From Eledone cirrhosa (taxonomy: Eukaryota), in contig CAXHJY010000383.1 in NCBI GenBank assembly GCA_964016885.1, forward strand, positions 1 through 55,587: DNA of 55,587 nt, given 5' to 3'. The notes below the pieces were generated by a model that saw only the letters and a list, made by a program, of their open reading frames with translations, ran no database searches and was not told the origin of the DNA. The translations under genes and the position numbers were made by a program. Below, piece after piece: positions 5,715 to 47,114 of the stretch; the first letter of the stretch is position 1, and every line of letters starts with the position of its first letter.

Positions 5715-6593
5715 TTAATTAGGTTTATAATATTTAAATGTTTTTCTTAGTTTATGATTACACGATATAATTAATTCCTGTCGTTTATTTAATAGGATAT
5801 TCTTAGATTTCATTATTTCAAATAGTTCTTGGGAACATAATCTACATTCATTTCTATTATTTTGATAAGGGGTGGCTCTTTTCAGCACACTCCAGGTCAT
5901 ATCATATTCTATATTCTTATTTTTATAACTATTGATTTTTTCTGCTAGAGATGATGTATTAGCCAGTGCTGCATTTTTAAAACTATGTTTGTGGGTATTA
6001 AACCTTACCTTAAAATTGTTAGAAGTAGCTCCTATATATGAACAAATAGAATCTTTAGTTTTAACATTACATTTATAAACTATGTTGTTAACAAGACAAT
6101 TTCCTTTTAATGGGCAGTTTGCTTTGTTTCTACAGTTACAACCTTTCGTTATTTCTGTATTTGAGGAGATATTATGGTTAGTTTGATGTATTGGTGGTAT
6201 ACTTATGGTATTCTTACATTTATATGCATTATAGGCACTTATATTTTGTTTTATGTTATTTGTTGTTGAGTATGAGAATTTAACTCTAGACCTATTTAAG
6301 ATTTGATGGTATTTGTGGTTTGGCGGGAAGTTTTTCTCTAGGATATAAAAATTTTTTTTAGCAATATTATCCTTAATTTGTAAATTAAATGGAGCATTAT
6401 ACCAAGTAACTCGTCTATTACGGTTTCTATGTTGTTTATTAGTTTTATAGGTTGTATCGTGATGTTTACTAGGAGGATTAATGTTAATGATCTCACCACG
6501 CACATTTTTAGTTAGATTTGTAGATTTAGGTGTTTTATCTTGTTTATTAGGAGTTTTATTATTAACATTTATTAGAGTTGTATGATGAGTAGT
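5715..6593 (-). pseudogene. 5'-truncated family A ORF: linker plus GIY-YIG endonuclease
   Basis: [26 protein letters not shown]...[20 protein letters not shown]. Near-identical to the C-terminus of the 20064-22505 ORF. RT is missing. Confidence 0.9.
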
Positions 6594-6727
6594 GTGTATA
6601 TATTTATATGTGTATATGTATCTCTATTTATATATGTATATATGTGTATGTATATCCCTTTATTTATGTATGTCTGAGTTGTGTGAGCGTGTGTATATGT
6701 ATGTGTATGTATGTGTGTGTGTGTGTA

Positions 6728-9118
6728 CTTTTCAACCCAGCTGACAAAACATATAAGATGGGTAATATCTATCCTACGAGGTTACCCTTTAATAAAAGAG
6801 TTTGCATACCACAGCAAATAGATGACGAGACGGAGGCACAGTTCACCATAGCTAGAAATAAGATTAGACAAGTAGTAGACAGGTACACTATGAGACAGAG
6901 CAGACCAGAGGCCCAACAACTTGGGATAAAACCTGTAGAAGGCTTGGTTAGCCTCAAGCAGCGCACAAGGGATGGTGAGGTAGTGTGTCTACCCACAGAT
7001 AAGTCTGGTAGGATGTCAATAGATAGCATGCCGAACTACATCGAGGCAATGCAACCCCACATCACCAACACGAGCGAAGTTGCACAACTAACACACGATG
7101 GGAGAGAAAAAATCCTCAACGCTCACATGATGATGTGGACTGACATCCTAAAGCCAAGCAGACGCACTGCCAACAACTTCCAGGCGTCTAACAATGGCAT
7201 ACCACCCTTGTATGGGCTCCGCAAAGACCACAAGACAGTCGACGACCCGACAACAGGACCACCAACAAGACCCGTATGCGGAGCTAATATAGCTAGCAAC
7301 TACAGGATCTCCTACTTCCTCTCAATGGTTATACGCCCCATAATCAAGATGTCCCCAGATGTATGTGAAAGTACAGAGGACCTCCTCAGCAGAATCAGTG
7401 AGTGCAACAAAAACAGGAGCCTATCCAACTGCATAATAGGCAGCATGGATGTGGTGTCACTGTACCCATCCATTAACATTGATTTTGCTGTGAAAAGATG
7501 TGTGGAGATGATCATTGAGAGTGAGGTGGAGTTCTGCGACGTCGACACAGACGAACTGGGCCTCCTACTTAGACTTACCTACGACACTGACTACCTAGAC
7601 AGCCATGACCTTAGATGTTTCTGCCCTAGTAGACCTATAAGAGGTAGACCCCCCACCATAACCTCAATGGCTAAAAAGACTCCCATAGGAAGGTGGATTG
7701 GGTGGACCAAAGCTATACGGACCCCCCAGAACACTGATCAGGTAAGAAAAATGGTCGCACATGCAATAGGGGCTAGTATCAAAACTACCCTAAAGGGCCA
7801 CATATTTAAGTTCAATGAGAAAATCTACACCCAAAATGAGGGAGCAGCCATCGGCGTCAGCATAGCTGGTGATGTTGCCAACCTTTTCATGGTATGGTGG
7901 GAAAGGAGACTTAAAGATCTCCTTAATGAAAGCTCCATAGACCTCATCATGTACTCTCGTTATGTAGACGATATCAATATAGTTATAAGAACACCCCCAC
8001 TAGAGAGCACTAACAAGTTTGATTTAGAACGTAGCACGATGGAAAGCATCCAGCAGATAGCTAATTCCATACACCAGAGTATAACTGTAACTATAGACTT
8101 CCCTTCCAAACACCCTAACAATAGACTACCTGTATTAGACACAGAACTCTGGATTAACACTATAGACGAGAGAGCTCAAATTCTCCACTCACACTACGCT
8201 AAACCCATGGCCTCCAAATACCTGATACTCAAAAACTCAGCAATGTCCAGTAGTGCTAAGTTTAATATTCTGATCGCAGATTTAGTACGAGTGATGAAGA
8301 ATGTGTCCAGCATGTGCGACCCAACAGAAATGGAAGGACACATCCAACACTTCATCAACCGCATGCAGTTCTCTGGCTACAACCAAAGAGACAGAGTCAG
8401 AGTATACGAAGGAGCCATGGAAAAGTATAAGACCCTCATAGAACTGGACATGAAAGGAATTTGCCCACTATACAGGAGCAAATCATGGAATAGCTTAGAT
8501 AGGGCTAGACATAAGATAGGGAAGGCCACATCATGGTACGACAACCAGAGATATCAGAGTGTCATGTTTGTGGACGCCACCCCTGGAGGGAAATTAGCTA
8601 ACCAGTGTAGAAAGGCCCTGACAAAAACCCACTTAAAAATAAAGGTGGTAGAAAAGCCAGGAACCACCATAAAATCCCTGATCAGCAAAACCTACCCTTT
8701 TAAGAAAACCCACTGTACCAATAGGAAATGTATCATATGTAAGGTGAACCCCCGGATAAACTGTAAAACTAGAAACGTAGTCTATAGCATAAGATGTACA
8801 GAGGGTACTTGCAGAAACACGACAACAACATACATAGGTGAGACAGCTCGTAGCATAGGTGAAAGGATAGACCAACACTGGGGGGAACTAAAAGGACGAA
8901 ACAACGGGTCAGTACTATACGAACATGCTAGACAACAACATGACGGTAACATAGACAACATAGAAATTAGAATAATATATAAACATAGGAATGACCCAGC
9001 AGATAGGCAAATCAGAGAGGCAAGTGAAATAGAAATTAGAAGACCAAAGCTAAACAGAAAGAATGAGTGGAACAACAACAACACCCAAACAAACAACACT
9101 GACCTAAGAGAAGTATAA
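6728..9118 (+). CDS. PLE reverse transcriptase with Cys-rich linker and C-terminal GIY-YIG endonuclease (N-terminus truncated; the first 40 codons of the tracked ORF are microsatellite)
   Basis: RT motifs GSMDVVSLYPSI, QNEGAAIGVSIAGDVANLFM, YSRYVDD. Linker CTNRKCIIC. Endonuclease NVVYSIRC...C...YIGETARSIGERIDQH...EHARQQH (CCHH-type). No internal stop. Confidence 0.9.
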   Translation, partial: LFNPADKTYKMGNIYPTRLPFNKRVCIPQQIDDETEAQFTIARNKIRQVVDRYTMRQSRPEAQQLGIKPVEGLVSLKQRTRDGEVVCLPTDKSGRMSIDSMPNYIEAMQPHITNTSEVAQLTHDGREKILNAHMMMWTDILKPSRRTANNFQASNNGIPPLYGLRKDHKTVDDPTTGPPTRPVCGANIASNYRISYFLSMVIRPIIKMSPDVCESTEDLLSRISECNKNRSLSNCIIGSMDVVSLYPSINIDFAVKRCVEMIIESEVEFCDVDTDELGLLLRLTYDTDYLDSHDLRCFCPSRPIRGRPPTITSMAKKTPIGRWIGWTKAIRTPQNTDQVRKMVAHAIGASIKTTLKGHIFKFNEKIYTQNEGAAIGVSIAGDVANLFMVWWERRLKDLLNESSIDLIMYSRYVDDINIVIRTPPLESTNKFDLERSTMESIQQIANSIHQSITVTIDFPSKHPNNRLPVLDTELWINTIDERAQILHSHYAKPMASKYLILKNSAMSSSAKFNILIADLVRVMKNVSSMCDPTEMEGHIQHFINRMQFSGYNQRDRVRVYEGAMEKYKTLIELDMKGICPLYRSKSWNSLDRARHKIGKATSWYDNQRYQSVMFVDATPGGKLANQCRKALTKTHLKIKVVEKPGTTIKSLISKTYPFKKTHCTNRKCIICKVNPRINCKTRNVVYSIRCTEGTCRNTTTTYIGETARSIGERIDQHWGELKGRNNGSVLYEHARQQHDGNIDNIEIRIIYKHRNDPADRQIREASEIEIRRPKLNRKNEWNNNNTQTNNTDLREV

Positions 9119-19089: not shown

Positions 19090-20135
19090 AAGGCAAAATT
19101 TATGCATTTCAAAATAAATAAGTATACCATTAATTATATGTTAACTAAACTAAAGATAGTTAACATATTGATTTCTAAGGTGTAAATTAGTTAGGTTTAT
19201 AATATTTGAAGCAGAATTTTGAAGTTAAATAGTAGTAGAGTATTAATTATAGTATAACTAAATTAAAGTTAATAACGTTATGGTATCAATATTAGGAAAT
19301 GAATTTAGTAATAGGGAAAAAACAAATAAAGTATTACATCGGTAGTAGAATATAAATTATAGGTTAACTAAATTAAAAATTATATATTTATTTCTATAGT
19401 ATATGTTAATTAGGTATATAATAAATAAAACAGATATTGTATTTTATCAATAGCAGAATATAATTATATGCAAATAGAAATCAAAATTAATACATATACA
19501 TATACATACACATACATATATACATATATATACACATATATATATACATATATACACATATACACACACACACACATACACATACACATATACATATACA
19601 TATTTTTTTCAAAAAATTGCATAGAATATATTAACTAGGTATATATCCAAAACACATCCCATTCTATGATTACATGACATTCTGCAATTCGTCTGTATAA
19701 GGATACTAATTTTAAGCAAATTAAATTAAATTTTTAGGTTGATTAAAATTAAAACCAAATTATAAATATATTTCTAAAATGTATATTAATTAGGTCTATA
19801 ATACTAAAAATTATTTCTCTGTCATTGGATACACGATATTATTTTGTTATATTTTATCTGTAAAAGAATTATAATAAAAGGTTTAAATAAATTAAAATTA
19901 ATCTATAAATTAAATTACTAAGTATATATTAGTAATATTTAAAGGTTTTTCCCAATTTATGATTACATAATATTTTATATTCTCATCTGTAATAAAATTT
20001 TAATTAAATTAAATTTATAGGTTAACCAACATTTAAATTAAATTAATTTCTAAAATAATGTTATTAATTAGGTTTATAATATTTAAATGTTTTTCTTAGT
20101 TTATGATTACACGATATAATTAATTCCTGTCGTTT
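19090..20135 (-). repeat. Degenerate ~110-155 bp tandem repeats derived from the ORF 3' end
   Basis: Recurring ttaattaggt(t/c/a)tataa, tatgattaca and gttaactaaattaaa motifs at about 19190, 19410, 19635, 19790, 19930 and 20070. Confidence 0.6.
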
Positions 20136-22505
20136 ATTTAATAAGATATCCTTAGATTTCATTATTTCAAATAGTTCTTGGGAACATAATCTACATTCAT
20201 TTCTATTATTTTGATAAGGGGTGGCTCTTTTGAGCACACTCCAGGTCAAATCATATTCTATATTCTTATTTTTATAACTATTGATTTTTTCTGCTAGAGA
20301 TGTTGTATTAGCCAGTGCGGCATTTTTAAAACTATGCTTGTGGGTATTAAACCTTGTCTTAAAATTGTTAGAGGTAGCTCCTATATATGAGCAAATAGAA
20401 TCTTTAGTTTTAACATTACATTTATAGACTATGTTGTTAACAAGACAATTCCCTTTTAATGGGCAGTTTGCTTTGTTTCTACAGTTACATCCTTTCGTTA
20501 ATTCTGTATATGAGGAGATATTATGGTTAATTTGATGTACTGGTGGTATACTTATGGTTTTCTTACATTTATATGCATTATAGGCACTTATATTTTGTTT
20601 TATGTTATTTGTTGTAGAGTATGAGAATTTAACTGTAGACCTATTTAAGATTTGATGGTATTTGTGGTTTGGCGGGAAGTTTTTCTCTAGGATATAAAAA
20701 ATTTTTTTAGCAATATTATCCTTAATTTGTAAATTAAATGGAGCATTATACCAAGTAACCCGTCTATTACGGTTTCTATGTTGTTTATTATTTTTATTAT
20801 TTTTATAGGTTGTATCGTGATTTTTACTAGGAGGATTAATGTTAATGATCTCACCACAACCATTTTTAGTTATATTTGTAGATTTAGGTGTTTTATCCTT
20901 TTTATTAGGAGTTTTATTATTAATATTTATTAGAGTTGTATGATGAGTAGTTTTTTGAGAGTTACTATACTTTATATTAGAAGATTTGGTATTTTGGGGT
21001 ATAGTGTGGGTGGCATTTAGGTGTGTACTTTTCATTTGGTGTTTGTTGGTAATATTAGGTTGTATGCTTTCAGTATTTTTAGTAGAAGGTATATATTCTA
21101 ATCTATTTTTGTGGCCACTTCTATCTAGAGCTTCGTTATAGAAGGTCGCATTTTTATCAAATACATCTTGGTTAGAAGAAAGGTTAGAAATTCTAAGTGA
21201 AATATTATATGCAAGGTTTTTAAGGATAGATTTAGGGTGATTAGATTGTGAGTGTATGTAATGTAAGTTTTGGTTAGGTTTATGGTAAGGTTGGTAGATA
21301 CCCGTAGCTAAATCTAAAGTTATATCTAGGAAATTTACTACTTTACTTGTTTTTTCAAAAGTAATATTAAGATTATAATAGTCTTTAAGGAAAGTTCTAA
21401 TATGTTTTTTGTTTTTTTCAATTTCTGAAAGGCTAAGGTTGTTAGAAAGAAGAAGACAGTCATCACGATATAAACCACCTTTGAGGTGGGGAAAAGAGGC
21501 ATTTATGTTGAAAAGGAGAAAGAGGCCCACAAGATCAGTAATTTGGGCGGAATCGCTTGAACCCATAGTAATATCAAATAGATTACTATATGTGTTTCTG
21601 GTCCAGTATTCATTCTGAAATTCAATAAGTGTTAGTCTAGCATGTGTAATAATATCAATGTCATCCAAAGTTAAGTTAGATCTATTTTTAGCAAATGTCA
21701 ATGCTTTGTTCAGGAGTATAGGTGATATAGAAGAATAGTAATTATCTATATCAAATTGTAGAAATGAAGCAGAAGATTTACATCTAATATTTTTAAACCA
21801 GTTAATTACCTGGGAGGTGTTTTCCCAGAGTGGTAAAATAACGTGTTTTCTTATTTGTGGGATGACTCTATCTAAAATTTTTTTGCTAATTATTCCAATA
21901 TCTGATTTGGAGGGACATATAAGTCTAATAGAAGGATTTGAGTTAAAGTTTGATTTATGATCCTTCAGGTTGAAGTGTGGTCTTTTCAATGCCAAAGGTT
22001 CAGTTCTATCTTCAATGTTTAGTTTTTTTACTATGTTGTGTGTTTTGTTGTTGATGTTGGTGAGTGACGCATTATTAGATTTTTTATAATTTTTTCTGAG
22101 TTCTTTATATATGAACTCGTTATAATGTTCAATATCCATATGATACAAGTTACCAGTTTTGTCCGAGTGGACATGGATTTTTTTAGACTTTTTTAGGTCC
22201 AATAGGGTAGAATCAAGGTCCTTTTGAAAGACGGATTTATACTTTTTAAATTTGAGGTGTTTAATTAAATTAAAAAGGTCTTTCTCGAAGTCTTCAAGTA
22301 AAAAGTTGTGTGGTGGATTCTTGTAAGTATTGAAATCATACATATATTTCCGATCTGCTTGTTTAGATTTTCTATCGAAGTGGTAGGCTCTCCATCTAAC
22401 CCTTCTGATAAAATTATTAGTTTTCTGAATCATAAGGAGTAAGAAGTCATCCTTAGAAGGTATTGGTATGTTTTTTAAGGAGGTTCCTAAATATTGTTTT
22501 TCCAT
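20064..22505 (-). CDS. Intact PLE polyprotein (813 aa from ATG): reverse transcriptase, CxCx5C linker, GIY-YIG endonuclease; Hydra-clade-like
   Basis: N-terminal TSLKNIPIP. RT motifs [74 protein letters not shown]...[20 protein letters not shown]. No stops or frameshifts. Confidence 0.95.
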   Translation of the reverse strand: MEKQYLGTSLKNIPIPSKDDFLLLMIQKTNNFIRRVRWRAYHFDRKSKQADRKYMYDFNTYKNPPHNFLLEDFEKDLFNLIKHLKFKKYKSVFQKDLDSTLLDLKKSKKIHVHSDKTGNLYHMDIEHYNEFIYKELRKNYKKSNNASLTNINNKTHNIVKKLNIEDRTEPLALKRPHFNLKDHKSNFNSNPSIRLICPSKSDIGIISKKILDRVIPQIRKHVILPLWENTSQVINWFKNIRCKSSASFLQFDIDNYYSSISPILLNKALTFAKNRSNLTLDDIDIITHARLTLIEFQNEYWTRNTYSNLFDITMGSSDSAQITDLVGLFLLFNINASFPHLKGGLYRDDCLLLSNNLSLSEIEKNKKHIRTFLKDYYNLNITFEKTSKVVNFLDITLDLATGIYQPYHKPNQNLHYIHSQSNHPKSILKNLAYNISLRISNLSSNQDVFDKNATFYNEALDRSGHKNRLEYIPSTKNTESIQPNITNKHQMKSTHLNATHTIPQNTKSSNIKYSNSQKTTHHTTLININNKTPNKKDKTPKSTNITKNGCGEIININPPSKNHDTTYKNNKNNKQHRNRNRRVTWYNAPFNLQIKDNIAKKIFYILEKNFPPNHKYHQILNRSTVKFSYSTTNNIKQNISAYNAYKCKKTISIPPVHQINHNISSYTELTKGCNCRNKANCPLKGNCLVNNIVYKCNVKTKDSICSYIGATSNNFKTRFNTHKHSFKNAALANTTSLAEKINSYKNKNIEYDLTWSVLKRATPYQNNRNECRLCSQELFEIMKSKDILLNKRQELIISCNHKLRKTFKYYKPN

Positions 22506-22856
22506 TGTGATATGGATGATGGACAATTGAAAGAGCTCAACTAAATGTATATGGGTTTATAAAATCATACATATATATATGTATATACATAAATATAAAA
22601 TTAATACACGCATACAGTACAATAATACGAATATTTCCGTGAAAATAGGAGCAAAATTATGTAGATAAATCTACCAAGAGTTTACGGTAGTGTCCAATCC
22701 GTATGAAGAACTCAATGTATTCCGGATATCATGGAAAGAAGAGATGTAATGAAAAATCACTTTCGGTGAAAGATAAACGGTATACAGAGTCAAGATAAAA
22801 TATTAAACAAATAATGAATAAACAATGAGACAGTTCCTTATATTAAACAAAAAAAG

Positions 22857-37078: not shown

Positions 37079-37164
<86 letters not shown>

Positions 37165-37165
37165 G
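35357..37165. repeat. (TA)n array with TACG and barcode interruptions
   Basis: Directly visible. Confidence 0.97.
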
Positions 37166-37749
37166 TTATTCCGAGTTGAATCGGAGGTAACCACAGTAAG
37201 TAAGGTACTCAATACATAGCAGAGTATAATAGTTTTAATATAGAAGAGATTCTACAGGACTAGAACTGTTTCATTCATTAGAAATCATCAGGAATCTGGG
37301 TATCAAAAAATAAATATGGTATTTATAGGTCTCTACAAGTGGTAGGAGAGGGTGGGGAGTGGGATGGGTGCAGGTCATTGGTTGATAGAGAAGGGAATTC
37401 ATTAAAGGCTAATTCTACATAGCTATAGTTAAATTATATTTATTTATGTTTTTAGAGTAACAAAGGCAGACAGAAATGCTATAAACAAGTTCCGGATGGC
37501 ATACCATTCCTTGTCAATAAGTTTCTCTTAAGCTAGCAGATGTCTATAAAATCAGTGGGGGGTCATTCATGCTCGATAGAATTAAAGGAAAGGGAGATTC
37601 TTTAAAAGCTAAAGTCATTAAGTTCTGCTAAGTGACAAAGGTCTAGGGAATTCTGCAGACAGATTCAAAATACTGAGTGCATATCTTACTATTATCTTCG
37701 AACTTCTCTTAAACTAATCAACAATATGCCAAATCAACAGACACATTCA

Positions 37750-37788
<39 letters not shown>

Positions 37789-38011
37789 ACACCTAAAAAA
37801 AAAAAAAACCAAAAAAACACACATACTCACTCACACACTTACGCGCAACCATAAACACACACATAAACACAAATACACACATAAAAACACACACACATAT
37901 ATAAAAAAGTATATAAATATATACAAATATATATTCATGTACACGCACATACATACACATATACATACATACATACATATATAAAATACATATACACATA
38001 TACATACGCAC

Positions 38012-38093
<82 letters not shown>

Positions 38094-38210
38094 CACACAC
38101 ATACACATACATATATACACATATATATATATATATACACACACATACACACACACACACATACATACATATATATATACACATATATATACACACATAC
38201 ATATATATAC

Positions 38211-38253
<43 letters not shown>

Positions 38254-38258
38254 CATAC

Positions 38259-38291
<33 letters not shown>

Positions 38292-38426
38292 CACACACAC
38301 ACGGATACACACACATACACATACATACACACATACACACATATATATATACACAAGTGAATACACTCACACGCATACATACAAACACGAGTATACATAT
38401 GTATAAATATCTATACACACACACAT

Positions 38427-38492
<66 letters not shown>

Positions 38493-38553
38493 ATATACAC
38501 ACATACACATACATACACACACACATACACATATATACACATACATACACATA

Positions 38554-38594
<41 letters not shown>

Positions 38595-38604
38595 ATATAT
38601 ACAT

Positions 38605-38651
<47 letters not shown>

Positions 38652-38712
38652 TACATACACACACACACATATACATACATATATATATATCTCTCTAAAC
38701 ACACACATACAA

Positions 38713-38751
<39 letters not shown>

Positions 38752-38915
38752 TATATACACATGTATATATATATATATATATACACACATATATATATAT
38801 ATACATACATATATCCATACATACACAAACATACACATGCATACACAGACCTATACATAAATATACACATATATATACAGAGATATAACGCACAAATACA
38901 CACACATATATACAT

Positions 38916-38949
<34 letters not shown>
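37166..38949 (-). mobile_element. Inverted arm of family C PLE (3' UTR, HHR, full terminus)
   Basis: Reverse complement of about 42360-43287 plus 44374-45210, with an extra ~60-bp terminal segment. Confidence 0.9.
37247..37297 (-). ncRNA. Type I hammerhead ribozyme (family C)
   Basis: agattc-CTGATGA-tttctaatgaat-GAAA-cag-ttctagtc-ctg-TA-gaatct. Confidence 0.8.
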
Positions 38950-38952
<3 letters not shown>

Positions 38953-40920
38953 AATGATGAGAAGTTCGGCTTCAAAACGAATAAGACACCACCCACCAAC
39001 AGCCTACTCCAACCATTTGAGGAAGACCTCTTCAAGATGATCAAGGATATTAAATTCCGTAGAGCCACCACACCATTCCAGGCCTACTTAAATGCCGAAT
39101 TACGGAATATAAAAAAATCCCCTAATCTTTATGTCTCCTCCGATAAAACCAAAAACGTTTATGAGGTAGACCCACAGACCTACAATAAGCTGGCAAAAAA
39201 TACCATCACGACCACCTACAAAAAGGTAATAGAGAGGGCGCTGACTGAGACAAACGCGGCCGGAAAAGAAATCGCCAAGTCCCTTAAATTACATGACCGA
39301 ACCGAACCTTTAAGGGTAAAGACCCCGCACTTTACCCTGAAGGACCATAAGGGAAACTTCCTCAACAAACCTTCAGTCAGACTTATCAACCCCACTCGCT
39401 CTGACATCGGCTCTATCAGTAAGAAGATCCTGGATAGAGTTCTACCATTATTGCGGGCGGCCTCACCACTTCCACTCTGGAGTAGAACATCTGAGGCAAT
39501 ATCATGGTTCCAAGAATTACCCGATAAACACCACACTCGCTTCCTGCAACTCGACATAGAAAACTACTATGCCTCTATCTCGGAGCCCCTCCTGAAGGAC
39601 GCAATTAACTTTGCCAGGAATTTTACCACCATTACCGATGCCGAGCAAGTTATTATCCTCCACGCTCGTAAGACCTTTCTATACCACGATGGATCTTACT
39701 GGATCAACAAGAAATCTCAGACCCCATTTGACGTTAGCATGGGGGCGAGTGACTCGGCTGAAATTAGCGACCTTGTGGGCCTGTACATCCTACATAACCT
39801 GAAGAACCTCTTTACCGGCCTTACTGGAGGTTTATACCGAGACGACGGCCTCTTCGCCCTGCATAAGGTTAGCCCCAGAACCACCGATGGGTTTCGGAAA
39901 AACTTAAGCTCTTTCTTCTCTAATCTAGGATTTAGTATTACTATAGATTCTAATTTGACTAGGGCCAACTTCTTAGATGTCACTCTCGACCTAGATACTT
40001 CCCTCTATTACCCGTACCACAAACCTAACGAGTCCCTTAAATATATTAATGTTAATTCAAACCACCCCCAAAACATTACTGATAACCTAGTAAAAAGCGT
40101 CTCTATTAGAATATCTGGCCTCTCCGCCAACAAAGATATTTTTAATGCATCTGCCTCCTACTACAATGACGCCCTAGCCCGTAGCGGATTTAAAGATAAG
40201 ATAACTTACCTAGAAACCACCGCAAAATTGCAGAGGAGGAATAGACATAGGCAGATTAGCTGGTACAACCCTCCCTTCAATAGAGAGGTATCTACTCCGA
40301 TAGCTAGGATTTTCTTCACTTTACTGAAATTACACTTCCCCATACAACATAGGTACTACACCATCTTTAATAAGAACACTATAAGACTGTCTTACTCCAC
40401 CACACCTAACCTAGCTAGGAATATAGCCAACCACAACTCTAAACTAAATAAGCCAACCACCTCCGAAACCAATCCCCGGACTGGGGCTCTATGTAATTGC
40501 CTAAATAAGGAAACATGCCCACTAGAAAACAAATGCCTCACAAACGACATCGTATACAAATGCGATGTCATCTCGGGCACCGAGGATTGCAAAAAAACTT
40601 ACATCGGCATGACATCCAACACCTTTAAGACCCGCTGGTATGCCCATACCCACTCCTTCAGAAGACCGGATAAATCAAACCAAACAACACTCGCCTCCTA
40701 CGTTTGGGACCTCAAAAGGAACTCCACCCCCTTCACGCTTAATTGGAAAATACTCCAGAAAGCGCGCTCTTACGACGGAGGACACAAGGGCTGCGACCTT
40801 TGTATTTCAGAGAGTTACGAAATTTTATTCGCCAAGGGCCCGCTACTGAACAAACTCTCTGAACACTGCCCGAATTGCATGCACAAGAACTTTGCAACAT
40901 TCAAACACTTTAAGCCAGTG
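38950..40920 (+). CDS. PLE reverse transcriptase, CxCx5C linker, GIY-YIG endonuclease (N-terminus truncated; frame stays open to 42957)
   Basis: [65 protein letters not shown]...[20 protein letters not shown]. Alignable to the family A protein throughout. The end coordinate marks the end of homology, not a stop. Confidence 0.88.
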
Positions 40921-41240
40921 TTTAAAGCCCGATGGCTAAAAACGACCTCCCCCTATTGGCCCCTATACCTCCTCCCCACCCTACCCCCACCCCTCCTCAA
41001 CCTGAAATACGGCCACTATGGTCATGTGAGTACCTCTTTTGTATCTACTTTTTCTGCCTGTAGAGGTGTCTTTATGTGCCTGTGTATATGCGTATATTTA
41101 CTGAGTACCTATTTACTTGTATGTGTATATATTTGTTTGTATATGTGTATATGTGTATGTGTTGTGTGTGTATATATATATATATGTATGTGTATGTGTA
41201 TATATATATGTATGTATATATATATATATATATGTATGTA

Positions 41241-41287
<47 letters not shown>

Positions 41288-41425
41288 ATGTATATATGTG
41301 TATATATACATATGTTTGTGTGAATACGTGTTTTATGTGTGTATATTTATGCAGGTATATGTTTGTATGTGTCTGTATTTATGTTTGTATGTATGTATGT
41401 ATGTGTGTGTATGTATGTATATGTA

Positions 41426-41482
<57 letters not shown>

Positions 41483-41619
41483 GTATATGTACGTATATGT
41501 ATGTGTATGTATTTGTGTGTATGTATGTATGTGTATGTATATGTATGTTTGTATATGTGTGTGTGTATATATTTGTCTGTATATATGTGTGTATGTGTAT
41601 ATGTATGTGTATGTATATG

Positions 41620-41657
<38 letters not shown>

Positions 41658-41723
41658 TATGGATATATATATATATATATATATTTATGTGTATATATAT
41701 ATATATGTATATATATGTGTATA

Positions 41724-41765
<42 letters not shown>

Positions 41766-41803
41766 CGTGTGCGTGTGCGTGTGTGTATGTGTGTATATGT
41801 GTG

Positions 41804-41853
<50 letters not shown>

Positions 41854-42104
41854 GTGTATATGTATGTGTTTGTATGTATGTATATGTATATATGTGTGTA
41901 TATATATGTGTGTGTATTTGTGAGTGTATATGTACATATATGTGTGTGTGTGTATGTACGTATGTGTATGTATATGTATGTGTATATGTATATGCATGCG
42001 TGTATATATATATATGTATATATATGTATATATATATATGTATGTATGTATGTGTATGTGTATGTGTGTGTATGTATGTATTTGTATGTGTCTGTGTATA
42101 TATG

Positions 42105-42195
<91 letters not shown>

Positions 42196-42280
42196 GTGCA
42201 TGAGAGAGAGAATGTGTGTGTGTATATATATTTTGTGTGTGGGTGTGTGTATGTGTGTATGCACGCGTGTGTGTGTGTAA

Positions 42281-42312
<32 letters not shown>

Positions 42313-42328
42313 ATGTGTGTGTGTATGC

Positions 42329-42392
<64 letters not shown>

Positions 42393-42556
42393 ATGTATAT
42401 ATGTGTGTGTATTTGTGCGTTATATCTCTGTATATATATGTGTATATTTATGTATAGGTCTGTGTATGCATGTGTATGTTTGTGTATGTATGGATATATG
42501 TATGTATATATATATATATGTGTGTATATATATATATATATATACATGTGTATATA

Positions 42557-42595
<39 letters not shown>

Positions 42596-42656
42596 TTGTA
42601 TGTGTGTGTTTAGAGAGATATATATATATGTATGTATATGTGTGTGTGTGTATGTA

Positions 42657-42705
<49 letters not shown>

Positions 42706-42715
42706 ATGTATATAT

Positions 42716-42756
<41 letters not shown>

Positions 42757-42817
42757 TATGTGTATGTATGTGTATATATGTGTATGTGTGTGTGTATGTA
42801 TGTGTATGTGTGTATAT

Positions 42818-42897
<80 letters not shown>

Positions 42898-43034
42898 ATG
42901 TGTGTGTGTATAGATATTTATACATATGTATACTCGTGTTTGTATGTATGCGTGTGAGTGTATTCACTTGTGTATATATATATGTGTGTATGTGTGTATG
43001 TATGTGTATGTGTGTGTGTATCCGTGTGTGTGTG

Positions 43035-43068
<34 letters not shown>

Positions 43069-43074
43069 TGTATG

Positions 43075-43123
<49 letters not shown>

Positions 43124-43240
43124 GTATATATATGTATGTGTGTATATATATGTGTATATATATATGTATGTATGTGTGTGTGTGTGTATGTGTGTGTATA
43201 TATATATATATATGTGTATATATGTATGTGTATGTGTGTG

Positions 43241-43291
<51 letters not shown>

Positions 43292-43633
43292 AAATAACGA
43301 AACGAAATTAAATTTCGTTTCGTTTGTAACTCACTTTTGTATGACTGACGCTTAAACAATTAAGTTAAAGATGTACATCCATATATGTATACTGAAATAC
43401 TAGTATGTATATGAATACACACACGTATACATATGTAGATGTACCAAGTTTTTTTCACTGGTCACTTTACTGTGAGTGGCCAGCTATTCTGTATGTAAAC
43501 ACACAGACAAACCGGTTGAACCGGTACTTACTCACACTCTGTGCGGATTAGTCTGCCCACTACTAATTTTCATAGAAAAAGCATATAACGATATGTGCTT
43601 TTACGATTCTCTAGAGAGGCCGGAAGATAGGTA

Positions 43634-43678
43634 AATATTGCTGATGAGTTGTAACAACAACGAAACTAGTTCAATATT
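43634..43678 (+). ncRNA. Type I hammerhead ribozyme (468-bp repeat, copy 1)
   Basis: aatattg-CTGATGA-gttgt-aaca-acaac-GAAA-ctag-TT-caatatt. Canonical core, palindromic stem III. Confidence 0.92.
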
Positions 43679-44101
43679 CCTTGTCTGGCTTTCTGGAGAA
43701 TAGAGGAAAGGTGTTTCCTCAAAAACCAGTATGACTCTAAAAACCGGTTTGTCTGTGTGTTTACATACAGAATAGCTGGCCACTCACAGTAAAGTGACCA
43801 GTGAAAAAAACTTGGTACATCTACATATGTATACGTGTGTGTATTCATATACATACTAGTATTTCAGTATACATATATGGATGTACATCTTTAACTTAAT
43901 TGTTTAAGCGTCAGTCATACAAAAGTGAGTTACAAACGAAACGAAATTTAATTTCGTTTCGTTATTTGTTTTTATCGTCTCCGTTGAACCGGTACTTACT
44001 CACACTCTGTGCGGATTAGTCTGCCCACTACTAATTTTCATAGAAAAAGCATATAACGATATGTGCTTTTACGATTCTCTAGAGAGGCCGGAAGATAGGT
44101 A

Positions 44102-44146
44102 AATATTGCTGATGAGTTGTAACAACAACGAAACTAGTTCAATATT
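44102..44146 (+). ncRNA. Type I hammerhead ribozyme (468-bp repeat, copy 2)
   Basis: Identical to 43634-43678. Confidence 0.92.
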
Positions 44147-44372
44147 CCTTGTCTGGCTTTCTGGAGAATAGAGGAAAGGTGTTTCCTCAAAAACCAGTAT
44201 GACTCTAAAAACCGGTTTGTCTGTGTGTTTACATACAGAATAGCTGGCCACTCACAGTAAAGTGACCAGTGAAAAAAAACTTGGTACATCTACATATGTA
44301 TACGTGTGTGTATTCATATACATACTAGTATTTCAGTATACATATATGGATGTACATCTTTAACTTAATTGT

Positions 44373-44434
<62 letters not shown>

Positions 44435-45141
44435 GTGTGCGTATGTATATGTGTATATGTATTTTATATATGTATGTATGTATGTATATGTGTATGTATG
44501 TGCGTGTACATGAATATATATTTGTATATATTTATATACTTTTTTTATATATGTGTGTGTGTTTTTATGTGTGTATTTGTGTTTATGTGTGTGTTTATGG
44601 TTGCGCGTAAGTGTGTGAGTGAGTATGTGTGTTTTTTTGGTTTTTTTTTTTTTTTTAGGTGTGGTTTTTTTTTTTTTTTTTTTTTTTTTGTGAATGTGTC
44701 TGTTGATTTGGCATATTGTTGATTAGTTTAAGAGAAGTTCGAAGATAATAGTAAGATATGCACTCAGTATTTTGAATCTGTCTGCAGAATTCCCTAGACC
44801 TTTGTCACTTAGCAGAACTTAATGACTTTAGCTTTTAAAGAATCTCCCTTTCCTTTAATTCTATCGAGCATGAATGACCCCCCACTGATTTTATAGACAT
44901 CTGCTAGCTTAAGAGAAACTTATTGACAAGGAATGGTATGCCATCCGGAACTTGTTTATAGATTTCTGTCTGCCTTTGTTACTCTAAAAACATAAATAAA
45001 TATAATTTAACTATAGCTATGTAGAATTAGCCTTTAATGAATTCCCTTCTCTATCAACCAATGACCTGCACCCATCCCACTCCCCACCCTCTCCTACCAC
45101 TTGTAGAGACCTATAAATACCATATTTATTTTTTGATACCC

Positions 45142-45192
45142 AGATTCCTGATGATTTCTAATGAATGAAACAGTTCTAGTCCTGTAGAATCT
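45142..45192 (+). ncRNA. Type I hammerhead ribozyme (family C)
   Basis: agattc-CTGATGA-tttctaatgaat-GAAA-cag-ttctagtc-ctg-TA-gaatct. GUA cleavage triplet. Confidence 0.8.
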
Positions 45193-45210
45193 CTTCTATA
45201 TTAAAACTAT

Positions 45211-46089
<879 letters not shown>

Positions 46090-46242
46090 ATAAATGCTCT
46101 GAAATAGCGATATATATGTGAATATAGACATAGAATATTCGAAAATATTCTGTATGTTTATAATAAACATTTTGAAGACCTAATCGCTATAGAATAGAAT
46201 ACGTCACGTATTACAATTAGATTCTCGATAAAAGCAAGGGAA

Positions 46243-46285
46243 GTAATCTACGCGTTTCATTCTCGTTAGAAATCATCAGGACTAC
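46243..46285 (-). ncRNA. Type I hammerhead ribozyme (310-bp repeat, copy 1)
   Basis: gtagtc-CTGATGA-tttct-aacg-agaat-GAAA-cgcg-TA-gattac. Confidence 0.88.
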
Positions 46286-46552
46286 ATATCCAGTGCTTTT
46301 ATCGAGAATGACACAGCTAGAGACTTATAGAATACTTAGCTGTGTACAGGAACTGGTTTGAAAGAGCGGTTGCCGGTCCGGCAGAAATTAGAAATTGGAA
46401 TAAATGCTCTGAAATAGCGATATATATGTGAATATAGACATAGAATATTCGAAAATATTCTGTATGTTTATAATAAACATTTTGAAGACCTAATCGCTAT
46501 AGAATAGAATACGTCACGTATTACAATTAGATTCTCGATAAAAGCAAGGGAA

Positions 46553-46595
46553 GTAATCTACGCGTTTCATTCTCGTTAGAAATCATCAGGACTAC
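46553..46595 (-). ncRNA. Type I hammerhead ribozyme (310-bp repeat, copy 2)
   Basis: Identical, offset +310. Confidence 0.88.
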
Positions 46596-46862
46596 ATATC
46601 CAGTGCTTTTATCGAGAATGACACAGCTAGAGACTTATAGAATACTTAGCTGTGTACAGGAACTGGTTTGAAAGAGCGGTTGCCGGTCCGGCAGAAATTA
46701 GAAATTGGAATAAATGCTCTGAAATAGCGATATATATGTGAATATAGACATAGAATATTCGAAAATATTCTGTATGTTTATAATAAACATTTTGAAGACC
46801 TAATCGCTATAGAATAGAATACGTCACGTATTACAATTAGATTCTCGATAAAAGCAAGGGAA

Positions 46863-46905
46863 GTAATCTACGCGTTTCATTCTCGTTAGAAATCATCAGG
46901 ACTAC
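46863..46905 (-). ncRNA. Type I hammerhead ribozyme (310-bp repeat, copy 3)
   Basis: Identical, offset +620. Confidence 0.88.
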
Positions 46906-47081
46906 ATATCCAGTGCTTTTATCGAGAATGACACAGCTAGAGACTTATAGAATACTTAGCTGTGTACAGGAACTGGTTTGAAAGAGCGGTTGCCGGTCCG
47001 GCAGAAATTAGAAATTGGAATAAATGCTCTGAAATAGCGATATATATGTGAATATAGACATAGAATATTCGAAAATATTCT

Positions 47082-47114
47082 ATATATATATATACGTATA
47101 TATATATATATGCG

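Follow-up and report, generated by a model that had tools for sequence, protein, structure and literature searches.

The question raised by this locus is how a repeat that carries hammerhead motifs and no gene comes to lie, with one part inverted, in a TA microsatellite inside a Penelope-like element (PLE). The window, that is the whole stretch of DNA analysed, is a 55,587-nt contig of Eledone cirrhosa, and the insertion occupies its positions 43288-44373. We consider it highly likely that this insertion is a non-LTR retrozyme, a tandem hammerhead repeat without coding capacity, and that it was pasted into the TA microsatellite by the reverse transcriptase (RT)-endonuclease borrowed from a PLE, using as template an RNA of a single haplotype that was likely circular and likely edited. 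Retrozymes as a class, their proposed link to PLEs, inverted arms and tails have each been published already, and the repeat described here is a further retrozyme. The insertion is made up of the following features, in which unit positions are counted from 43672 (unit position 1).

43288-44373, whole ribozyme-repeat insertion, flanked by TA tracts on both sides
43288..43517, minus strand, inverted arm, unit positions 71-300; its outer end, 43288, is site B (unit 300) and it carries the tail
43515..44373, plus strand, direct arm of 1.83 units, with site A (unit 233) as its outer end at 44373
43515..43517, no strand, GTT overlap of 3 nt at the head-to-head junction of the arms
43906..43975, plus strand, tail of ~70 nt between site A (unit 230-235) and site B (unit 299-304), with a long AACGAAACGAAATT hairpin
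44006..44044, plus strand, helix of unit positions 335-373, the 5' strand of which is an A-to-G hotspot
43245..43287, no strand, left (TA)n target tract, 43 nt
44374..44391, no strand, right (TA)n target tract, 18 nt

Self-alignment bears out the first-pass annotation, which had described 1.8 direct copies of a 468-bp unit with a hammerhead, together with a 230-bp inverted arm. Positions 43515-43905 recur at 43983-44373 over 391 nt, at 99.7% identity with one gap and a period of 468, and the direct arm of 859 nt amounts to 1.83 units of 468 bp with a type I hammerhead. The inverted arm, 43288-43517, is the reverse complement of about 43742-43971 (229 nt at 100%). The insertion had also been called unrelated to the 310-bp repeat at 46084-47092, and this holds, as it is the ribozyme core alone that aligns between the two (E 0.16). 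This neighbour, on the minus strand, consists of 3.3 copies of a 310-bp hammerhead repeat, and its core resembles the minimal hammerhead found at 45148 in the element that hosts the insertion.

The host element and its empty site are laid out as follows.

37166..45209, plus strand, host element of family C, a Hydra-type PLE with a 5'-truncated ORF from 38950 and a minimal hammerhead at 45148
37166-38950, inverted arm of family C, with a 64-nt one-sided tail at 37166-37229
38059..38089, no strand, empty-site (TA)n tract of 31 nt in the family C inverted arm

Translation of the family C ORF revealed a C-terminal endonuclease (EN) and the DKT, CxCx5C linker, CxxC and CxH motifs listed for Hydra elements in PMC8557442, and by these motifs the host may be placed in the Hydra clade. 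A Pfam search with the three PLE ORFs of the window left two without a match, that of family C among them, and gave a weak RVT_1 match for the third. The two other ORFs are at 20064-22556 on the minus strand (830 aa, Hydra motifs, several nested copies) and at 6593-9118 on the plus strand (an 841-aa frame with CX4CXXC before the endonuclease, Neptune- or Nematis-like by motif alone), the whole 55-kb contig being a nest of (TA)n-targeting PLEs. It had been proposed that the homologous (TA)n tract of the family C inverted arm is empty, and that the insertion is a true one, later than the family C copy. When the reverse complement of 37150-38960 was aligned to 42340-45230, 1,730 columns were obtained with small microsatellite indels and only 2 mismatches, the first of which lies where the insertion begins or ends and the second within the unmatched tail; the 38059-38089 tract is empty as claimed, and the order of events is supported. 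Since the family C arms are near-identical and one of them lacks the insert, the insertion followed a very young PLE insertion. TA around the insert amounts to 43 + 18 nt (61 nt) versus 31 nt at the empty site, a difference in which target duplication is inseparable from slippage.

Each tandem unit carries a hammerhead, and the two copies bound a monomer.

43623..43694, plus strand, type I hammerhead copy 1, predicted cut after 43671 (sequence reading and Rfam HH9)
44091..44162, plus strand, type I hammerhead copy 2, predicted cut after 44139 (sequence reading and Rfam HH9)
43672..44139, plus strand, predicted cut-to-cut monomer of 468 nt, strongly folded

Stem I pairs 43634-43640 with 43672-43678 (7 bp) and is followed by CUGAUGA at 43641-43647, a 5-bp stem II (GUUGU/ACAAC, loop AACA), GAAA, a CUAG palindrome in stem III and a GUU triplet. 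Rfam HH9 matched both copies at 37.7 bits (E 1e-7), which is under its 52-bit gathering score. The monomer is 36% GC and its longest ATG-initiated ORFs encode 19 aa on the plus strand and 62 aa on the minus strand. Its predicted fold has a z of -9.5, none of 100 shuffles being equally stable, and is stronger on the ribozyme strand than on the opposite one (-151 vs -126 kcal/mol); the long rod and the hairpins named in the first-pass annotation all appear in it. The ribozyme stems still form in the predicted fold of the entire insertion, so that the inverted arm is not predicted to block the hammerheads. As to size, the monomer had been put at the large end for metazoan retrozymes, which holds against the 150-450 bp given in PMC7229834 but not against the 51-972 bp of bioRxiv 10.64898/2026.07.22.740005.

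Variation within the family was consistent with a functional motif. A two-sided change in stem II (U-A to A-U) was present in 8 of 34 haplotypes, with 2 further two-sided changes in other stems, and over all stems together 35 variant pair types keep the pairing against 25 that break it. The cut base was read in 510 copies whose core is intact; 405 of them have U there, 105 have C, and none has G. The covariation of stem II and the constraint at the cut base are signs of a working ribozyme, the catalysis being predicted from these patterns. Eight of nine predicted Xenopus retrozymes failed to cleave in vitro (bioRxiv 10.64898/2026.07.22.740005).

The genome-wide copy search that the first-pass annotation had proposed uncovered an abundant family. 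The exact ribozyme pattern of the family had 9,305 matches in the 3.0-Gb genome and a looser pattern, which includes a sister family, 23,339, with none in the reversed control in either case. Searching with the unit gave 258 genome matches, and among the 150 matches listed, identities of 98-100% were found at 30 dispersed loci. Forward-strand junctions to (TA)n were counted genome-wide, 1,183 of them at site A and 1,250 at site B (reverse-strand counts, inflated by overlapping matches, were left out), which corresponds to roughly 2,400 insertions. The longest head-to-tail arrays comprise about 30 units and contain no ORF. On the retrozyme side, we found a type I hammerhead in each tandem unit, dispersed head-to-tail repeats, non-coding sequence of GC below 50% and a stable fold; on the PLE side, a head-to-head inverted 5'-truncated arm, with the 3' ends of both arms facing outward, a one-sided tail between fixed end sites and insertion into (TA)n. 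Taken together, these sequence features suggest that the element has the retrozyme characters that were examined and would work like a PLE-mobilised element, without being, at the loci sampled, an autonomous PLE.

The outer ends of the insertions are clustered at the two unit positions A (230-235) and B (299-304), ~70 nt apart, and their pairing is far from random. In the first 76 Mb of contig C1, where 65 A and 67 B listed junctions were ordered by position and not chosen by identity (38 of the 132 remaining unpaired), 45 of 47 facing end pairs were A+B, 2 were A+A and none was B+B (p 8e-12 vs 50%). Of the A+A pairs, L158 turned out to consist of two insertions lying next to each other, and L157 is a genuine case, with a difference between its arms at position 98. 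At 30 young loci whose printed flanks were read by eye, 23 were A+B and 7 were one-ended or unresolved. A 472-nt sister family, which shares 260 identities in 490 columns with the unit, has its own end sites at 251-257 and 311-316, about 60 nt apart, and of 20 loci the 13 that were readable on both sides had one of each. The same one-sided tail also occurs in family C and in two other (TA)n families. The start site used at one DNA end is not independent of that used at the other, and a near-strict rule of one A and one B applies. The PLE-style inversion claimed earlier is thus supported, and it is strengthened by this two-site tail rule, which the first-pass annotation did not contain. Mobilisation by a PLE is, in our judgment, very likely; that this PLE belongs to the Hydra clade is only slightly favoured. 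Counting against the reading, short-word BLAST of the unit and of its 472-nt sister against the window revealed nothing beyond chance with the window PLEs, and a partner hunt with the ribozyme-core pattern gave, among the first 100 matches listed, only copies of the two retrozyme types.

The sister family was found through a chimeric locus (L048:5515-6906, C3, about 124.406 Mb), at which an arm switches from unit position 288 to the 472-nt sister at a shared GAAATT...TTTCGTTT hairpin.

Either arm may be the longer one: the A arm reaches 31 units next to a B arm of less than one (C1, 5.7 Mb), and a B arm of 27 units faces an A arm of 9 on C3. One arm is therefore not a fold-back of the other, and we infer two independent first strands per insertion. 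The first-pass annotation had joined the arms through a GTT microhomology; the overlap is present at the inversion, but it is neither diagnostic nor family-wide among the resolved junctions. Among 15 junctions resolved out of 19 (4 unresolved), 5 overlap by 1-4 nt, 4 are blunt and 6 contain fill-ins of 9-19 nt, and an overlap of at least 3 nt is expected at about 6.5% of random junctions. The mixture of blunt, overlapped and filled-in joins rules out microhomology as a family rule, and the GTT overlap at this insertion is incidental. Both arms of one insertion usually share one haplotype. No difference at all was seen between the arms in 19 of 32 two-armed loci, the remaining 13, which include chimeric, nested and older ones, having 1-26 differences, and locus-wide variants (G86C, C127A, C47T, A98G+A388C) run through both arms.

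Two readings of this architecture would dispense with a retrozyme inserted by a borrowed enzyme. The unit could be the pLTR or the 3' end of a longer coding PLE, present here as truncated tandem pieces, a case that the first-pass annotation had itself named. It does combine PLE ends with a hammerhead, and 24 of 57 Xenopus retrozyme families are homologous to annotated repeats, nearly all of them PLE termini (bioRxiv 10.64898/2026.07.22.740005). About 90 of roughly 2,400 insertions were read, and a pLTR of a coding PLE was looked for in 76 fetched stretches; PLE protein matches were present in many flanks and by coordinates lay outside the arms, and no such pLTR was seen at these loci. The one candidate with a same-strand ORF upstream of the unit (L142) is a nested insertion, as 0 of 14 other copies of that PLE end run into the unit, and arrays of ~30 copies contain no ORF. 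This origin is judged very unlikely. Still less credible is that the inverted arm is a DNA-level fold-back or repair copy, or an assembly artefact in a microsatellite-rich 55-kb contig. The window is indeed the whole of a small contig (C410) and the arms at this locus are identical, but large contigs carry insertions built in the same way, in which the longer arm may be the A or the B arm and each arm has a fixed end site of its own, and the A+B rule contradicts such an origin.

Insertion of a retrozyme by a PLE remains the preferred reading, and the sequence of the arms bears on the RNA that was copied. The copy in the window has G at unit positions 338, 342 and 343 (44009, 44013 and 44014, and also 43541, 43545 and 43546), at which the family majority has A; the sister family keeps A across the same stretch. 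Genome-wide, 4,995 copies match the 35-nt helix exactly, and allowing G at five 5'-strand adenosines adds 1,712 copies, counts that are made up of non-independent events. As controls in the same helix, T-to-C at five 5'-strand T added 20 copies, A-to-G within the 3' half added 139, and C-to-T at three C that pair with G added 50, or per site about 17 copies for the wobble-keeping C-to-T change versus about 340 for A-to-G. G was found on 5 backgrounds at position 338, 1 at 342, 6 at 343, 7 at 344 and 7 at 347. A>G was also in excess outside the five hotspot sites, where it affected 52 sites and T>C only 22 (p 4e-4). In the unit as a whole, A-U to G-U changes (22 of 89 sites) did not differ significantly from C-G to U-G changes (7 of 51, p 0.14), nor, at unpaired sites, did A>G (12 of 59) from T>C (7 of 48), and the 5'-neighbour bias was weak. 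Position 347, which is among the most recurrent hotspot sites, lies in a UAG context, and UAG is the preferred ADAR triplet. We moderately favour that the hotspot reflects A-to-I editing written back into DNA, as this sequence pattern suggests. A helix-state survey, for which 20 of 88 loci were chosen for carrying G, distinguished 13 states among 87 loci, with a uniform state in 72 of 77 arrays and rare states equal across the arms in 20 of 21 loci.

Two further explanations, one of the A-to-G excess and one of the template, have more in their favour than those above. Misincorporation by the RT, or selection for G-U wobbles, amplified by a few successful subfamilies, would account for the excess: among the 1,712 copies, 827 have G at 344, and in the first 100 of these to be listed G at 347 is mostly present too, while the non-significant whole-unit wobble control and the weak neighbour bias fit as well. 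The twenty-fold or so gap between C-to-T and A-to-G copies per site within one helix argues against it, as do the recurrence of four of the five sites on 5-7 backgrounds and the prominence of the UAG site; it is a real contender, though we rate it below editing. As regards the template, many recurrent states, each uniform across its array, point to a single-unit bottleneck such as a monomeric circle would give, although uniform arrays could alternatively have been inherited from uniform donors. In the rival explanation of the template, the PLE inserts in the same way but copies a linear multimeric transcript of a donor array; long arrays would be inherited or lengthened through unequal exchange, a circle would be unnecessary, and in vivo the hammerhead would have weak activity or none. 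Such a template suits L186, where at least two unit types form a mosaic in both arms, and the variant G437T, found in register in the fourth unit of both arms at C4a; uncut RNA is moreover the main PLE substrate in vitro (PMC11167929). Periodic variants confined to one arm (C3big, L168 and the 31-unit C1 array) may be counted on the same side, and they indicate that arrays grow after insertion, for which reason long arrays were dropped as proof of rolling-circle copying. However, with 13 states in 87 loci and uniformity in 72 of 77 arrays, a multimeric template needs a repeated single-unit bottleneck, and the core, the cut base and the stem II pairing are conserved across subfamilies that are 87-100% alike. 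We regard the linear multimer as rather unlikely and infer, with fair confidence, that the template RNA was circular.

At L186 (C5, about 63.09 Mb) the unit types alternate in the right arm and differ mostly by A/G; this mosaic array is a candidate product of a template with two or more units. When contigs from 4 of 6 listed sequencing runs were compared with 43200-44450 of the window, three runs (X4, X5 and X6) labelled as three other organisms (B, C and D) also contained close variants of the unit, which may reflect relatedness or contamination. A 497-nt contig of run X4 that closes on itself, going back 467, was set aside as a sign of circles, since a tandem array fits equally.

The favoured mechanism, copying of a circular RNA by a borrowed PLE enzyme, may be pictured as follows. 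Arrays would be transcribed and, quite probably, would self-cleave to 468-nt monomers; cleavage is likely to proceed through dimers because stem III is limited to two base pairs, A-U and C-G, closed by a palindrome. In this weak palindromic stem III the unit resembles the axolotl retrozyme motifs, which cleave better as dimers. By analogy with other animal retrozymes, ligation of the monomers into circles is reasonably likely, and retrozyme circles have been demonstrated in coral, mussel and axolotl (PMC7229834). A PLE protein that targets (TA)n, acting as a dimer, would then cut both strands and extend each end from a different start site, so that one cDNA begins at site A and the other at site B, which lies 70 nt to the 3' side. 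Each cDNA would span from 0.1 to about 30 units, the two being joined head-to-head by blunt, overlapped or short fill-in end-joining. Inosines of the RNA may well be copied as G, and some arms would expand further after insertion. More tentatively still, and with the odds somewhat against it, a single PLE dimer might prime both TA ends on one edited circular RNA, always at A and B, and roll round it, in which case the insertions would be clonal records of one RNA and written-back ADAR editing would drive the germ-line evolution of the family. In vitro work has shown that the tail of a PLE reaches from one internal RT start site to another and that the enzyme cuts and extends both strands, and it predicts a dimer (PMC11167929). 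In the same study, the start site was equal on both DNA strands, which counts against strand-specific priming at A and B here.

The repeat shares with animal non-LTR retrozymes (PMC7229834; bioRxiv 10.64898/2026.07.22.740005; PMC7761336) a non-coding tandem structure with a type I hammerhead per unit, low GC, a strong fold and thousands of copies, as well as the proposed PLE helper and the proposed copying from circles. Bipolar insertions, a two-site rule and genomic A-to-G hotspots are absent from the main texts, supplements aside, of PMC7229834 and bioRxiv 10.64898/2026.07.22.740005 as excerpted, and RNA editing is named as one possible cause of circle heterogeneity in PMC7229834. EN+ PLEs of the Hydra clade (PMC8557442, PMC3846280, PMC11167929) have in common with it an inverted 5'-truncated arm, a one-sided tail, (TA)n targeting and a hammerhead. 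The repeat differs from them by having no ORF and, in the comparison with the window PLEs, no detectable pLTR homology, and its tail of about 70 nt is longer than the 30-40 nt published for a PLE (PMC11167929). Derivatives of Chlamys PLEs such as MRC1 (PMC8557442) are likewise non-coding, multicopy, head-to-tail and PLE-made; their 3' end resembles that of an autonomous partner and canonical hammerheads are mostly absent from them, whereas here no partner match was found among the window PLEs. The literature searched, which left most subscription journals outside its coverage, contained no account of retrozyme insertions with inversion and tail, of a counted A+B rule or of A-to-G hotspots in genomic copies. 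The partnership between retrozymes and PLEs has been published as a hypothesis based on co-occurrence and pLTR homology, and the insertions described here add a mechanistic footprint to it, in the form of the tail, the inversion and the target. The near-strict rule of one A and one B, being based on counts, constrains models of the still unsolved cycle by which PLEs insert, and the 468-nt non-coding template, with its start sites mapped, could be used directly in the in vitro PLE assay that already exists. Should the hotspot be due to editing, RNA edits that became heritable through retrotransposition are recorded in thousands of genomic copies.

Two other abundant elements were encountered in the course of the analysis. 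A 60-nt arm joined to the unit at L036 had been considered as a partner and was rejected, as it belongs to an abundant tailed palindromic element of ~200 bp and not to a coding PLE. This element (L036:4226-4300, L068-L086; 710 candidates) has two inverted arms of ~60 nt and a one-sided tail of ~80 nt in (TA)n, and from this structure it may be a MITE-like PLE derivative; at L036 a T run connects one of its arms to a retrozyme arm that has B as its end site. Another abundant PLE end (L204-L218; 1,594 candidates) has two end points about 64 nt apart, which equals the length of the family C tail.
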